64,000 nt of DNA from Escherichia coli (GTDB lineage: Bacteria > Pseudomonadota > Gammaproteobacteria > Enterobacterales > Enterobacteriaceae). Shown here in pieces: positions 25,559 through 34,023 of this stretch (its first letter is position 1; each line of letters begins with the position of its first letter). A model generated the notes under the pieces. It saw only the letters and a list, made by a program, of their open reading frames with translations. It had not been told where the DNA came from and made no database searches. The stretch lies in NCBI RefSeq assembly GCF_003334355.1, contig NZ_QOWP01000001.1; one strand, given 5' to 3'. The position numbers were made by a program, and so were the translations under genes.

Positions 25559-26959
25559 ATGTCTGATATAAACCATGCAGGTTCTGACCTTATATTTGAA
25601 CTGGAGGATCGCCCTCCCTTTCATCAGGCTCTCGTTGGTGCCATTACCCATCTGTTGGCAATTTTCGTTCCGATGGTAACCCCCGCGTTAATCGTGGGTG
25701 CGGCCTTACAGCTTTCCGCTGAAACAACTGCCTATCTTGTTTCAATGGCGATGATCGCCTCTGGTATTGGTACCTGGTTACAAGTAAACCGCTACGGCAT
25801 CGTCGGTTCTGGCCTACTCTCAATTCAGTCAGTCAATTTTTCATTTGTTACGGTCATGATTGCGCTGGGCAGCAGCATGAAAAGCGACGGTTTTCACGAA
25901 GAGTTAATCATGTCGTCGCTTCTCGGCGTCTCCTTCGTTGGCGCATTTCTGGTTGTCGGCTCTTCTTTTATCCTGCCCTATTTACGTCGGGTTATTACGC
26001 CTACTGTCAGCGGTATTGTGGTACTGATGATCGGCTTAAGCCTGATTAAAGTCGGCATTATTGATTTTGGTGGAGGATTTGCTGCCAAAAGCAGCGGTAC
26101 CTTCGGCAATTACGAACATCTCGGCGTTGGTTTATTGGTTTTGATTGTGGTGATCGGCTTTAACTGCTGTCGCAGTCCGTTGCTACGCATGGGAGGGATC
26201 GCTATTGGGCTATGTGTCGGCTATATCGCATCGTTATGCCTGGGCATGGTGGATTTCAGCAGTATGCGCAATTTGCCGTTAATCACCATCCCACATCCAT
26301 TCAAATACGGCTTTAGTTTTAGCTTCCATCAGTTCCTGGTGGTTGGCACGATTTATCTGCTTAGCGTGCTGGAAGCAGTCGGCGATATCACCGCCACGGC
26401 AATGGTTTCCCGCCGCCCCATTCAGGGGGAAGAGTATCAGTCCCGACTGAAAGGCGGCGTGCTGGCAGATGGTCTGGTTTCTGTTATCGCCTCCGCTGTC
26501 GGTTCATTACCATTAACCACGTTTGCGCAAAATAATGGGGTTATTCAGATGACTGGCGTCGCTTCACGTTATGTCGGGCGAACCATCGCGGTAATGCTGG
26601 TTATCCTCGGCTTATTTCCGATGATTGGCGGCTTCTTCACGACCATTCCCTCGGCAGTTCTGGGAGGCGCAATGACGTTGATGTTTTCCATGATTGCCAT
26701 CGCAGGGATTCGCATCATCATCACCAACGGTTTAAAGCGCCGTGAAACACTTATTGTCGCCACTTCTTTAGGTTTAGGGCTTGGCGTCTCCTACGATCCC
26801 GAAATTTTTAAAATATTGCCAGCCTCTATTTATGTATTAGTTGAAAACCCTATTTGTGCTGGCGGGTTAACTGCGATTTTATTAAATATTATCCTCCCTG
26901 GTGGCTACCGACAGGAAAACGTTCTGCCTGGTATTACCTCAGCGGAAGAGATGGATTAA
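25559..26959 (+). CDS. xanQ: Xanthine permease (NCS2/NAT family)
   Basis: ORF 25502..26959; multi-pass membrane protein with NAT family motifs. Start at the internal ATG (MSDINHAG, 466 aa). Confidence 0.9.
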   Translation: MSDINHAGSDLIFELEDRPPFHQALVGAITHLLAIFVPMVTPALIVGAALQLSAETTAYLVSMAMIASGIGTWLQVNRYGIVGSGLLSIQSVNFSFVTVMIALGSSMKSDGFHEELIMSSLLGVSFVGAFLVVGSSFILPYLRRVITPTVSGIVVLMIGLSLIKVGIIDFGGGFAAKSSGTFGNYEHLGVGLLVLIVVIGFNCCRSPLLRMGGIAIGLCVGYIASLCLGMVDFSSMRNLPLITIPHPFKYGFSFSFHQFLVVGTIYLLSVLEAVGDITATAMVSRRPIQGEEYQSRLKGGVLADGLVSVIASAVGSLPLTTFAQNNGVIQMTGVASRYVGRTIAVMLVILGLFPMIGGFFTTIPSAVLGGAMTLMFSMIAIAGIRIIITNGLKRRETLIVATSLGLGLGVSYDPEIFKILPASIYVLVENPICAGGLTAILLNIILPGGYRQENVLPGITSAEEMD

Positions 26960-26973
26960 CAGTAAAGGAGTCA

Positions 26974-28293
26974 ATGATGTCAGGAGAACACACGTTAAAA
27001 GCGGTACGAGGCAGTTTTATTGATGTCACCCGTACGGTCGATAACCCGGAAGAGATTGCCTCTGCGCTGCGGTTTATTGAGGATGGTTTATTACTCATTA
27101 AACAGGGAAAAGTGGAATGGTTTGGCGAATGGGAAGACGGAAAGCATCAAATTCCTGACACTATTCGCGTGCGCGACTATCGCGGCAAACTGATAGTACC
27201 GGGCTTTGTCGATACACATATCCATTATCCGCAAAGTGAAATGGTGGGGGCCTATGGTGAACAATTGCTGGAGTGGTTGAATAAACACACCTTCCCTACT
27301 GAACGTCGTTATGAGGATTTAGAGTACGCCCGCGAAATGTCGGCGTTCTTCATCAAGCAGCTTTTACGTAACGGAACCACCACGGCGCTGGTGTTTGGCA
27401 CTGTTCATCCGCAATCCGTTGATGCGCTGTTTGAAGCCGCCAGTCATATCAATATGCGTATGATTGCCGGTAAGGTGATGATGGACCGCAACGCACCGGA
27501 TTATCTGCTAGACACTGCCGAAAGCAGCTATCACCAAAGCAAAGAACTGATCGAACGCTGGCACAAAAATGGTCGTCTGTTGTATGCGATTACGCCACGC
27601 TTCGCCCCTACCTCATCTCCTGAACAGATGGCGATGGCGCAACGTCTGAAAGAAGAATATCCGGATACGTGGGTACATACCCATCTCTGTGAAAACAAAG
27701 ATGAAATTGCCTGGGTGAAATCGCTTTATCCTGACCATGATGGTTATCTGGATGTTTACCATCAGTACGGCCTGACCGGTAAAAACTGTGTCTTTGCTCA
27801 CTGCGTCCATCTCGAAGAAAAAGAGTGGGATCGTCTCAGCGAAACCAAATCCAGCATTGCTTTCTGTCCGACCTCCAACCTTTACCTCGGCAGCGGCTTA
27901 TTCAACTTGAAAAAAGCATGGCAGAAGAAAGTTAAAGTGGGCATGGGAACGGATATCGGTGCCGGAACCACTTTCAACATGCTGCAAACGCTGAACGAAG
28001 CCTACAAAGTGTTGCAATTACAAGGCTATCGCCTCTCGGCATATGAAGCGTTTTACCTGGCCACGCTCGGCGGAGCGAAATCTCTGGGTCTTGACGATTT
28101 GATTGGCAACTTTTTACCTGGCAAAGAGGCTGATTTCGTGGTGATGGAACCCACCGCCACTCCGCTACAGCAGCTGCGCTATGACAACTCTGTTTCTTTA
28201 GTCGACAAATTGTTCGTGATGATGACGTTGGGCGATGACCGTTCGATCTACCGCACCTACGTTGATGGTCGTCTGGTGTACGAACGCAACTAA
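26974..28293 (+). CDS. guaD: Guanine deaminase
   Basis: ORF 26854..28293; amidohydrolase motifs (PGFVDTHIHYPQ). Start at MMSGEHTLKAV (439 aa). Confidence 0.9.
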   Translation: MMSGEHTLKAVRGSFIDVTRTVDNPEEIASALRFIEDGLLLIKQGKVEWFGEWEDGKHQIPDTIRVRDYRGKLIVPGFVDTHIHYPQSEMVGAYGEQLLEWLNKHTFPTERRYEDLEYAREMSAFFIKQLLRNGTTTALVFGTVHPQSVDALFEAASHINMRMIAGKVMMDRNAPDYLLDTAESSYHQSKELIERWHKNGRLLYAITPRFAPTSSPEQMAMAQRLKEEYPDTWVHTHLCENKDEIAWVKSLYPDHDGYLDVYHQYGLTGKNCVFAHCVHLEEKEWDRLSETKSSIAFCPTSNLYLGSGLFNLKKAWQKKVKVGMGTDIGAGTTFNMLQTLNEAYKVLQLQGYRLSAYEAFYLATLGGAKSLGLDDLIGNFLPGKEADFVVMEPTATPLQQLRYDNSVSLVDKLFVMMTLGDDRSIYRTYVDGRLVYERN

Positions 28294-32139: not shown

Positions 32140-32574
32140 TTGCATCCCTTTCATTTAATGAGTTATGTCTTCTCAAATTTCGCGATGCAATAAACGGGCA
32201 TATATTAGGTAGCATGACCGTTTTAATTATAATTTTGCGACTGAGTTCAAATTATTGCCCCTCAAACTATGCCGCTTTCATTATTTCAACATTGCCGATC
32301 AAAAGAGCGCTATCCAGATAAAAACGATTAAATGCGAGAGTGCGACATGCCAGAATGATTAATGAAATATCAATATGAGAAAATTACAGATAATTCCATT
32401 GTCAGGTTCTCTTGTCATTTTCGTGGTTTAAGCACGATTATGTGATTGCCTCCGCAATTCCTGTCTCTAACTTCCCTTCCTCGCAAAAACTGGCACTCCA
32501 CGAGCATGTGTTTAGACAGTTTCATTAACGTAAACGGTTGCTTTTTACTCTGGCGGGCGAAAGGAGAAACACTG

Positions 32575-34023
32575 ATGAGCGCCATAGATTCCCAACTTCC
32601 CTCATCTTCTGGGCAAGACCGCCCAACTGATGAGGTTGACCGCATATTATCACCAGGAAAGCTGATCATACTCGGTCTGCAACACGTCCTTGTCATGTAC
32701 GCAGGTGCAGTCGCTGTTCCTCTTATGATTGGTGACCGACTGGGCCTCTCAAAAGAAGCTATTGCGATGCTCATTAGCTCGGATCTCTTTTGCTGCGGGA
32801 TCGTCACATTATTGCAATGTATCGGTATCGGCCGCTTTATGGGGATCCGCCTGCCGGTGATTATGTCGGTGACCTTTGCTGCTGTAACACCAATGATAGC
32901 CATTGGGATGAACCCGGATATCGGCCTGCTGGGGATATTTGGTGCCACTATTGCCGCGGGTTTTATCACCACATTATTAGCGCCACTTATCGGTCGCTTG
33001 ATGCCTTTATTCCCGCCACTGGTTACCGGTGTGGTTATTACTTCTATTGGGCTTAGCATCATTCAGGTGGGTATTGACTGGGCCGCCGGAGGTAAAGGGA
33101 ATCCGCAATATGGTAATCCCGTTTATTTAGGTATCTCCTTTGCCGTCTTAATTTTTATCTTGCTCATTACTCGCTATGCGAAAGGATTTATGTCCAACGT
33201 CGCCGTATTACTGGGGATTGTATTTGGCTTTTTACTTTCGTGGATGATGAATGAAGTCAATTTATCCGGGCTACATGATGCCTCGTGGTTTGCGATTGTC
33301 ACCCCGATGTCGTTTGGTATGCCGATTTTCGATCCCGTTTCCATTCTGACCATGACTGCCGTGTTAATCATCGTGTTTATCGAGTCGATGGGGATGTTCC
33401 TGGCACTGGGTGAAATAGTCGGTCGTAAACTCTCTTCACACGATATTATTCGCGGGCTGCGTGTCGATGGCGTAGGGACAATGATAGGCGGAACGTTTAA
33501 CAGCTTCCCCCACACGTCATTTTCACAAAACGTTGGCCTGGTTAGCGTGACGCGTGTTCATAGCCGCTGGGTGTGTATTTCTTCGGGAATTATATTAATC
33601 CTGTTTGGCATGGTGCCAAAAATGGCGGTGCTGGTCGCCTCCATTCCGCAATTTGTGCTGGGCGGCGCTGGGCTGGTGATGTTCGGCATGGTACTGGCGA
33701 CAGGGATTCGAATTCTGTCGCGCTGTAACTACACCACCAACCGTTACAACCTCTATATTGTGGCGATCAGTCTCGGCGTTGGCATGACTCCGACGCTCTC
33801 TCACGATTTCTTTTCTAAGTTACCGGCCGTACTGCAACCGCTGCTACATAGCGGCATTATGCTCGCAACCCTTAGCGCCGTTGTGCTGAACGTCTTCTTT
33901 AATGGCTATCAGCATCATGCTGACCTGGTGAAGGAATCCGTCTCTGATAAAGATTTAAAAGTCAGGACAGTACGTATGTGGCTTCTGATGCGCAAGCTGA
34001 AGAAAAATGAGCATGGAGAATAA
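32575..34023 (+). CDS. uacT: Uric acid transporter (NCS2/NAT family)
   Basis: ORF 32446..34023; polytopic membrane protein of the NAT family. Start at the internal ATG (MSAIDSQLP, 482 aa). Confidence 0.88.
   Translation: MSAIDSQLPSSSGQDRPTDEVDRILSPGKLIILGLQHVLVMYAGAVAVPLMIGDRLGLSKEAIAMLISSDLFCCGIVTLLQCIGIGRFMGIRLPVIMSVTFAAVTPMIAIGMNPDIGLLGIFGATIAAGFITTLLAPLIGRLMPLFPPLVTGVVITSIGLSIIQVGIDWAAGGKGNPQYGNPVYLGISFAVLIFILLITRYAKGFMSNVAVLLGIVFGFLLSWMMNEVNLSGLHDASWFAIVTPMSFGMPIFDPVSILTMTAVLIIVFIESMGMFLALGEIVGRKLSSHDIIRGLRVDGVGTMIGGTFNSFPHTSFSQNVGLVSVTRVHSRWVCISSGIILILFGMVPKMAVLVASIPQFVLGGAGLVMFGMVLATGIRILSRCNYTTNRYNLYIVAISLGVGMTPTLSHDFFSKLPAVLQPLLHSGIMLATLSAVVLNVFFNGYQHHADLVKESVSDKDLKVRTVRMWLLMRKLKKNEHGE

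Follow-up and report, generated by a model that had tools for sequence, protein, structure and literature searches.

A candidate divergent sigma-54 control region at the purine feeder end of the Escherichia coli anaerobic urate island

What controls the transport and feeder end of the anaerobic urate island of Escherichia coli? The question is raised by an 8465-bp stretch (positions 25559-34023 of the window, that is, of the whole 64,000 nucleotides of contig NZ_QOWP01000001.1 that were analysed) in which xanQ, guaD and ghxQ are followed by the oppositely oriented pair ygfT-ygfS, and this pair in turn diverges from the urate transporter gene uacT across a spacer of 435 bp (32140-32574, counted from the RefSeq start of ygfT). 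The functions of these genes and the surrounding anaerobic urate pathway are already published, and the locus is already known; as for its regulation, a literature search found no YgeV binding study, YgeV site, inducer logic or uacT promoter described, YgeV (IsrR) being the orphan activator encoded in the same island.

Within the anaerobic purine and urate catabolic island, the block forms the end that serves transport and substrate feeding, and its spacer appears to be a divergent sigma-54 control region formed by two back-to-back promoters and one shared enhancer, to which a PurR site is added. Taken as a whole, this explanation (the purine feeder end of the urate island, with a spacer read by YgeV, sigma-54, CRP and PurR) is the best of those considered, and we would give it about seven chances in ten.

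The spacer between ygfT and uacT

An earlier note on this DNA had proposed that long untranslated regions upstream of uacT and ygfT could hold regulatory sites. The length is real; there is, nevertheless, one divergent region and not two, and the boundary at 32155 that had been given to it stems from an in-frame ATG upstream of the RefSeq ygfT start. The regulatory content, for its part, is borne out by a sigma-54 site detected by chromatin immunoprecipitation and sequencing (ChIP-seq) 36 nt upstream of ygfT (PMC4591121) and by a PurR region detected by immunoprecipitation and microarray hybridization (ChIP-chip; PMC3159470), and the best match of the window to a PurR matrix, a PurR-box-like site as the note had suggested, also lies in it. 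The K-12 annotation carries no feature within this spacer.

When positions 32120-32594 were aligned with the orthologous regions of strains of the Escherichia clade, of E. whittamii and of two Citrobacter species (seven sequences in all), 49% of the spacer columns were invariant overall and 37% outside the named elements. The longest invariant runs (32185-32203, 32354-32362, 32368-32382, 32437-32447, 32486-32495, 32498-32507 and 32530-32545) fall on the ygfT sigma-54 site, the dyad, a CRP-like site, a sigma-54-like element in front of uacT and a PurR box (Table 1).

Central to the argument is the dyad, TATCA-N3-TGAKA, whose main copy has its centre at -199 relative to the ygfT start and at -143 relative to the putative uacT start. 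The exact 13-mer TATCAATATGAGA also occurs upstream of ygeW (7150-7162); it is found with one mismatch upstream of xdhA (1332-1344) and as the perfect palindrome TATCATAATGATA upstream of ygfK (16998-17010). The dyad is thus present at every island sigma-54 promoter that has an intergenic upstream region, and its centres lie between -131 and -247 from the inferred starts of xdhA, ygeW, ygfK, ygfT and uacT, which is typical enhancer territory. Four 9-mers are common to at least three of the island regulatory regions (0.07 in shuffles), all four of them coming from the dyad motif, and the exact pattern TATCANNNTGAKA has six matches in the window, at four distinct sites, where 0.17 would be expected. 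In Citrobacter sp. R56, moreover, the dyad copies are islands of identity inside otherwise diverged spacers. A further perfect copy, TATCATCTTGATA, lies within the dpaL/ygeX coding sequence (8994-9006), and Citrobacter sp. R56 has it in the corresponding position (L021, 11522-11534); it may be a YgeV site within the gene or a coincidence of the coding sequence. An FNR-like sequence, TTGAT-N4-ATCAC, which overlaps the xdhA dyad, was rejected, as Citrobacter does not conserve it.

The protein that would read the dyad, YgeV, has PAS, Sigma54_activat and HTH_8 domains, and its gene lies about 25 kb upstream of the spacer. An expression-compendium study defined a YgeV iModulon that includes ygfT, the expression of which drops in a ygeV mutant, and a later study puts uacT in the same set. 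A first homology search with YgeV returned near-identical E. coli proteins only. Four distant clusters encode YgeV-type regulators that are 44-56% identical and keep the recognition helix ELGIG(I/V)ATLYRKIKKY, and it is these clusters that give the strongest support to the dyad as the predicted enhancer: in L024, L025 and L027 it lies upstream of the best sigma-54 matrix matches, at 138-248 bp from centre to centre, and in Buttiauxella (L012) the spacer contains the perfect TATCAAACTGATA flanked by two divergent sigma-54 promoters, whose inferred starts place the dyad at -161 and -140. Such a distribution suggests that the dyad is probably the YgeV enhancer.

What diverges from ygfT-ygfS in the Buttiauxella-like and metagenomic clusters is, instead of uacT, a gene for a 1070-aa fused Mo/FAD hydroxylase that has a strong sigma-54 promoter (the spacers are L012 5644-6000, L024 14123-14491 and L025 14149-14601). 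The ygfT-side promoters of the same three loci have a degenerate -24 (xGCAC) and a perfect TTGCA.

The matrix used to score sigma-54 sites was derived from 42 ChIP sites. Published ChIP-seq sites lie upstream of xdhA, ygeW, ygfK and ygfT (PMC4591121), another, inside yqeC, is a mutationally validated promoter for yqeB, and the regulon list obtained by immunoprecipitation with exonuclease trimming (ChIP-exo) includes ygfT and ygfS. The ygfT site (listed with FAT 3 in PMC4591121) departs from the consensus at -24 (TG rather than GG), has a perfect -12 element and reaches 6.7 bits when it is left out of the matrix; the start inferred from it, near 32175, matches the published distance to the ATG, and a degenerate -24 of the same type recurs in two other lineages. 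In front of uacT, the candidate element has its GG (32492-32493) and GC (32504-32505) correctly spaced, both of its variable positions lie in the spacer between -24 and -12, and its score is the same 6.7 bits as that of the ChIP-positive ygfT site. Its surroundings also have the architecture of the sister promoters, with the dyad at -143 and a CRP-like site at -68.5, just where the ygfT promoter has its own. A sigma-54 promoter for uacT is predicted on these grounds, with the odds clearly, if not overwhelmingly, on its side.

With regard to CRP, the best match to TGTGA-N6-TCACA between -135 and -40 was taken at each of six island promoters. The scores were 8, 9, 9, 10, 8 and 8 out of 10, the perfect one belonging to ygfK and one of the 9/10 to ygeW, and the centres, in the same order, were -67.5, -77.5, -78.5, -97.5, -68.5 and -68.5, all of them on one helical face; the chance of a random best score of at least 8 is about 0.055 per scan. 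A CRP-like site scoring 9/10 lies inside yqeC (15908-15923), at -78.5 from the validated intragenic yqeB promoter and in the helical phase of the other island promoters. In the published work on the pathway, a "native Crp-binding site" is mentioned solely for the ygeV/ygeW spacer, and in the engineered strain of that study the native ygeV/ygeW control region was swapped for constitutive promoters (PMC12507026).

The PurR matrix was built from 26 ChIP-chip motifs, the two from the island having been left out, and as a positive control it recovered the published gcvT operator AAGAGAACGATTGCGT (51965-51980, 18.4 bits). The box in the inferred uacT leader has the top score of the whole window, within the range of bound PurR sites (lower quartile 18.2 bits, median 20.3), and it outranks the known gcvT site, the ChIP-listed ygfK site, the ygeW box and the published ygfT motif; it would span +12 to +27 if uacT starts near 32517. 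The ygfT motif lies in a Cys-rich Fe-S motif, and its sequenced synonymous positions are invariant in seven species. The ChIP-chip regions "ygfK-ssnA" and "ygfT-ygfS" were bound with adenine and are listed only in the plus-adenine column (PMC3159470); the second of them corresponds to about 31401-32437 of the window, covering the 5′ coding sequence of ygfT and most of the spacer. No effect of PurR on the expression of the island targets is reported in the literature. Upstream of ygeW, which was formerly predicted computationally as a PurR target (PMC4576408), a match to the matrix (ACGAAAACGTTTGGCT, 17.2 bits, 7257-7272, minus strand) lies between the dyad and the sigma-54 site; it is conserved in Citrobacter R56 and is not on the PurR ChIP-chip list.

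Other forms of control were considered in the same regions. Riboswitches, whether for xanthine, guanine or another ligand, are rejected, because an Rfam scan of 24500-35500 at E ≤ 5 gave noise matches only; the leader RNAs of xanQ and uacT fold no better than shuffles (z = -0.8 and +0.85, respectively), and as leader peptides all the small open reading frames of the spacer were unconvincing. The arms TTGCATC/GATGCAA around the ygfT start region (32140-32190) fold stably as RNA (z = -3.7); this hairpin was discarded as a ygfT leader structure, since most of it precedes the inferred start, its 5′ arm reaching into the -12 element; the ygfT transcript probably does not include it. The supplement of the Reg-Seq preprint holds nothing on uacT or ygfT.

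If we accept the reading presented above, YgeV, as a PAS/AAA+/HTH activator, would bind the central dyad and its weaker copy, and would activate the leftward ygfT-ygfS promoter, where sigma-54 occupancy is published, and probably also the rightward uacT promoter, with its canonical -24 and degenerate -12. The CRP-like sites at -68.5 could serve to bend the DNA or to couple the promoters to carbon status. PurR, together with hypoxanthine or guanine, would superimpose repression, the ChIP-detected intragenic ygfT site acting as a roadblock and the strong box in the uacT leader probably contributing as well, and xanQ-guaD-ghxQ would probably be controlled separately. In its most specific form, the proposal would be that TATCA-N3-TGAKA is the enhancer of the orphan activator YgeV, that one copy of it drives two promoters with complementary defects (a poor -24 at ygfT, a poor -12 at uacT), and that, by way of PurR boxes and of CRP-like sites fixed at -68.5 (plus multiples of 10), urate uptake and reduction are made to respond to carbon status and purine sufficiency; in this form it is tentative, and we rate it somewhat short of an even bet.

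Table 1. Positions of the regulatory elements and genes in the window.
Feature	Position	Strand	Sequence	Remarks
Dyad	32368-32380	+	TATCAATATGAGA	Candidate shared YgeV enhancer; 13/13 positions invariant
Second dyad copy, weaker	32348-32360	-	AATCATTCTGGCA	20 bp from main copy; 11/13 invariant
ygfT sigma-54 site	32186-32202	-	TATGCCCGTTTATTGCA	ChIP-seq site OS32 (PMC4591121); 17/17 invariant in 7 species
uacT sigma-54-like element	32490-32506	+	CTGGCACTCCACGAGCA	Canonical -24, degenerate -12; inferred start about 32517; 15/17 invariant
CRP-like site, ygfT side	32236-32251	-		8/10, best in range; reads TGTGA in sister species
CRP-like site, uacT side	32441-32456	+	TGTGATTGCCTCCGCA	8/10, best in range; 13/16 invariant
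PurR box, inferred uacT leader	32528-32543	+	ACGTAAACGGTTGCTT	19.0 bits; 15/16 invariant
PurR motif, ygfT codons 93-98	31847-31862	+	GGGCAAGCGATTGCGC	Assigned by PurR ChIP-chip (PMC3159470 Table 1); 14.2 bits
Terminator-like GC hairpin	25404-25419	+	GGCCGCTTCGGCGGCC	Between xdhD and the xanQ upstream region
Bidirectional terminator-like hairpin, ghxQ/ygfS junction	29702-29725	both		9-bp stem, 7 GC pairs
xanQ	25559-26959	+		Xanthine/H+ symporter, NCS2 family; RefSeq, NCBIfam TIGR00801, PMC3809563
guaD	26977-28293	+		Guanine deaminase (guanine to xanthine); RefSeq, NCBIfam TIGR02967
ghxQ	28329-29696	+		Guanine/hypoxanthine transporter; RefSeq name only
ygfS	29732-30220	-		4Fe-4S dicluster ferredoxin-like protein; RefSeq, NCBIfam
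ygfT	30220-32139	-		Fe-S/flavin (GltD-like) oxidoreductase; RefSeq, NCBIfam equivalog NF009451
uacT	32575-34023	+		Urate/H+ symporter, NCS2 family; RefSeq, NCBIfam TIGR03173, PMC3809563, PMC12507026

Alternative explanations

The alternative that survives best concerns the other arm of the block, where xanQ-guaD-ghxQ could be a salvage-type operon that merely lies beside the urate island instead of its co-regulated entry branch, a possibility to which we give only slightly less credit than to its opposite. In the region 25395-25558, neither a dyad nor a sigma-54 site is present, and there is no strong match to the PurR matrix; a terminator-like hairpin, which is conserved across five species but for a single substitution in the loop in Citrobacter MGH106, parts the three genes from xdhD; none of the three is on the YgeV-iModulon list; and all three are absent from the stretches fetched of the distant clusters L024, L025 and L027. 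On the other hand, synteny of the three genes with the island is kept in Escherichia and Citrobacter, XdhABC receives xanthine through their products, and the 140-bp region upstream of xanQ is highly conserved and must therefore be regulated by something. Positions 25455-25558 of this upstream region are almost invariant across five species and hold an inverted repeat, TGAGA-N8-TCTCA (25462-25479); no recognisable promoter, sigma-54 site or Rfam element was found in them. Because they are without the dyad and sigma-54 signature, stand outside the YgeV co-expression set and are missing from the distant clusters, xanQ, guaD and ghxQ may be a separately regulated, lineage-specific addition.

For the spacer itself, several observations weigh against the explanation preferred here. 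The assignment of the dyad to YgeV is purely comparative, and ybiY, a gene of the YgeV iModulon, has neither dyad nor sigma-54-like site in the 130 bp upstream of it (L023 8513-8642, K-12), its co-expression being probably indirect. The CRP-like sites of the ygfT and uacT sides score only 8/10, and on the ygfT side only 9 of 16 columns are invariant. The PurR ChIP region has the intragenic ygfT motif at its centre and stops 91 bp before the uacT box, and repression of a catabolic pathway by PurR in purine excess has no obvious physiological logic. As regards uacT, its element must be read in a window with 137 positions above 6 bits, and matches to the sigma-54 consensus with two mismatches are found at chance frequency (45 versus 44), for which reason the consensus alone was rejected as evidence of a sigma-54 promoter. 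Finally, sigma-54 normally pre-binds its own promoters, and uacT (ygfU) is missing from the sigma-54 ChIP-seq tables and their supplements and from the ChIP-exo list; the published binding maps come from aerobic growth in minimal medium, a condition under which the island is silent.

This absence from both sigma-54 binding maps, together with the low score of the element, speaks for a second alternative, according to which uacT would not be a sigma-54 gene: it would be transcribed from a sigma-70 or other promoter and be mainly under PurR control, the conserved TGGCA...GAGCAT block would be the site of another protein, and only ygfT-ygfS would use the enhancer. The GAGCA found instead of TTGCA at -12 is consistent with this, as are the presence of the transporter genes xanP, yieG and yjcD among the PurR ChIP-chip targets and the position of the strongest PurR-matrix match of the window, directly upstream of uacT. 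However, no sigma-70 promoter with conserved hexamers is visible in the spacer, where a consensus scan found sites no commoner than in shuffles and the sole match, TTGTCA-18-GATTAT (32412-32441), has a -35 that is not conserved. The uacT block, moreover, retains its GG and GC and varies at two spacer positions only, its CRP-like site keeps the distance seen at the ChIP-verified ygfT promoter, which itself scores equally low, and uacT is grouped in the YgeV iModulon. This second alternative is, in our view, unlikely.

The weakest alternative, and a quite improbable one, is that the dyad is bound by IHF, Fur or an unknown urate-responsive factor and that the true YgeV sites are elsewhere, for its TATCAA does fit the first half of the IHF consensus (the left half resembles WATCAA), IHF sites are common at sigma-54 promoters, the ygfK copy TATCATAATGATA is AT-rich and resembles Fur-box hexamers, and it is comparison that links YgeV to the dyad, but the dyad has no counterpart to the TTR half of the IHF consensus, the invariance extends to all 13 positions, beyond an IHF-like core, the distances to the promoters are those of enhancers and not of IHF bends, no island promoter with an intergenic upstream region is without it, and it tracks those clusters whose YgeV-type regulators, in spite of their low overall identity, keep an identical recognition helix.

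The genes of the block and their neighbourhood

The stretch belongs to the chromosome of E. coli: several complete genomes of this species match it with 100% identity, and it is found at a coverage of at least 80% in 5160 of 5426 complete genomes. The source strain is not K-12, its identity being 100% to ATCC 8739-like genomes. In K-12, the loci b2882-b2888 of the xdhA-uacT anaerobic urate (2,8-dioxopurine) island have identical genes in the same order, orientation and spacing; nothing of substance differs, and the annotation agrees gene for gene. Upstream of the block lie xdhABC, ygeV, ygeW-dpaL-ygeY-hyuA-arcC, yqeB/yqeC, mocA and ygfK-ssnA-ygfM-xdhD, and downstream of it idi and lysS.

Gene coordinates are those of the RefSeq annotation carried over to window positions, and the protein assignments were checked against NCBIfam profiles with their curated cut-offs (for GhxQ, a query threshold of E ≤ 1e-10). 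All the gene assignments made in the earlier note for this block were right, that of GhxQ resting on its RefSeq name, as no NCBIfam model matched it at the threshold used. XanQ and UacT exceed the NCS2 superfamily model TIGR00801 (455 and 454 bits, cut-off 292); UacT is also above the pbuX model TIGR03173 (510 against 414 bits), and XanQ falls just under the pbuX cut-off (413.7 against 414.15 bits). GuaD has an equivalog-level match (634 bits, cut-off 375), as does YgfT (1503 bits, cut-off 1154, residues 1-639), which is composed of an N-terminal 4Fe-4S ferredoxin domain and a GltD-family domain at 171-635. YgfS is a 4Fe-4S dicluster protein similar to HydN and to the N-terminal part of AegA, and is 46% identical to the N-terminal domain of YgfT.

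The ygfS-ygfT pair had been described as convergent, and this holds in the sense that the pair converges on ghxQ and diverges from uacT; the two genes are not convergent with each other, as both are on the minus strand, where the ygfT stop TGA overlaps the ygfS ATG (GTGATGA). Thus, they are a co-directional, translationally coupled pair. In Citrobacter sp. R56 (L004/L015), ygfS is missing and the convergent ghxQ comes directly after ygfT, so that YgfS is dispensable in at least one lineage.

The order of events suggested in the earlier note (import, conversion to xanthine, hydroxylation, and then reductive or hydrolytic steps) agrees with the published pathway (PMC3809563; PMC12507026). XanQ and UacT are described as the transporters of xanthine and urate (PMC3809563), and in the literature GhxQ imports guanine and hypoxanthine and GuaD converts guanine to xanthine. 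The neighbouring cluster is a reductive urate pathway in which XdhD-YgfM reduces urate to 2,8-dioxopurine, which is dearomatised by YgfK, its ring being opened by SsnA/HyuA, and ends in pyruvate and ammonia; the order of the enzymes is XdhD-YgfM, YgfK, SsnA, HyuA, YgeY, YgeW/YqeA and YgeX (PMC12507026). A preprint implicates AegA and YgfT in the formate-dependent degradation of urate, and urate strongly induces ygfT (bioRxiv 10.1101/2022.07.24.501321); YgfT with YgfS would have a role in Fe-S/flavin electron transfer, supporting formate-linked reductive urate degradation by XdhD/YgfK. AegA and YgfT are GltD-like Fe-S flavoproteins.

Significance and comparison with known systems

The anaerobic urate cluster of E. 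coli is under active study for probiotics against gout and hyperuricaemia, and a regulatory model of it could explain the differences in urate consumption from strain to strain, which a preprint attributes to regulation (10.1101/2025.04.24.650524). If the reading of the dyad as YgeV enhancer is true, it would amount to the cis-regulatory code of a gut-relevant anaerobic urate regulon, and it offers targets that can be tested: the 13-bp dyad, the two promoter elements, the PurR box and the phased CRP-like sites. What is added to the known locus is such a testable cis-regulatory model, an ordinary instance of enhancer-dependent divergent transcription, and the gain is modest and incremental.

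At zraP/zraSR, activated by ZraR, and at hycA/hypA, activated by FhlA, the sites of the bacterial enhancer-binding protein (bEBP) lie between two promoters. The divergent region proposed for ygfT/uacT would resemble them in having two outward-facing sigma-54 sites in one intergenic region, which in those systems are OS38/OS39 and OS27/OS28, respectively (PMC4591121). It differs from them in that its promoters are 342 bp apart and each is half-degenerate, in that the activator gene is about 25 kb off, and in that sigma-54 occupancy has been detected at only one of the two promoters.

The prpR-prpBCDE system is a catabolic sigma-54 operon that needs CRP and has a PAS-type bEBP, with the CRP site between enhancer and promoter. 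The plan proposed for ygfT/uacT would be similar, the role of CRP being read here from sequence and phasing only. The PurR operators of purine genes, including the intragenic roadblock of purB, are 16-bp palindromes with a central CG, and the likeness lies in this palindrome, which in the block studied here would be present once in a coding region and once in a leader; the targets, in contrast, would be catabolic and transport genes with sigma-54 promoters, and not biosynthetic genes with sigma-70 ones.

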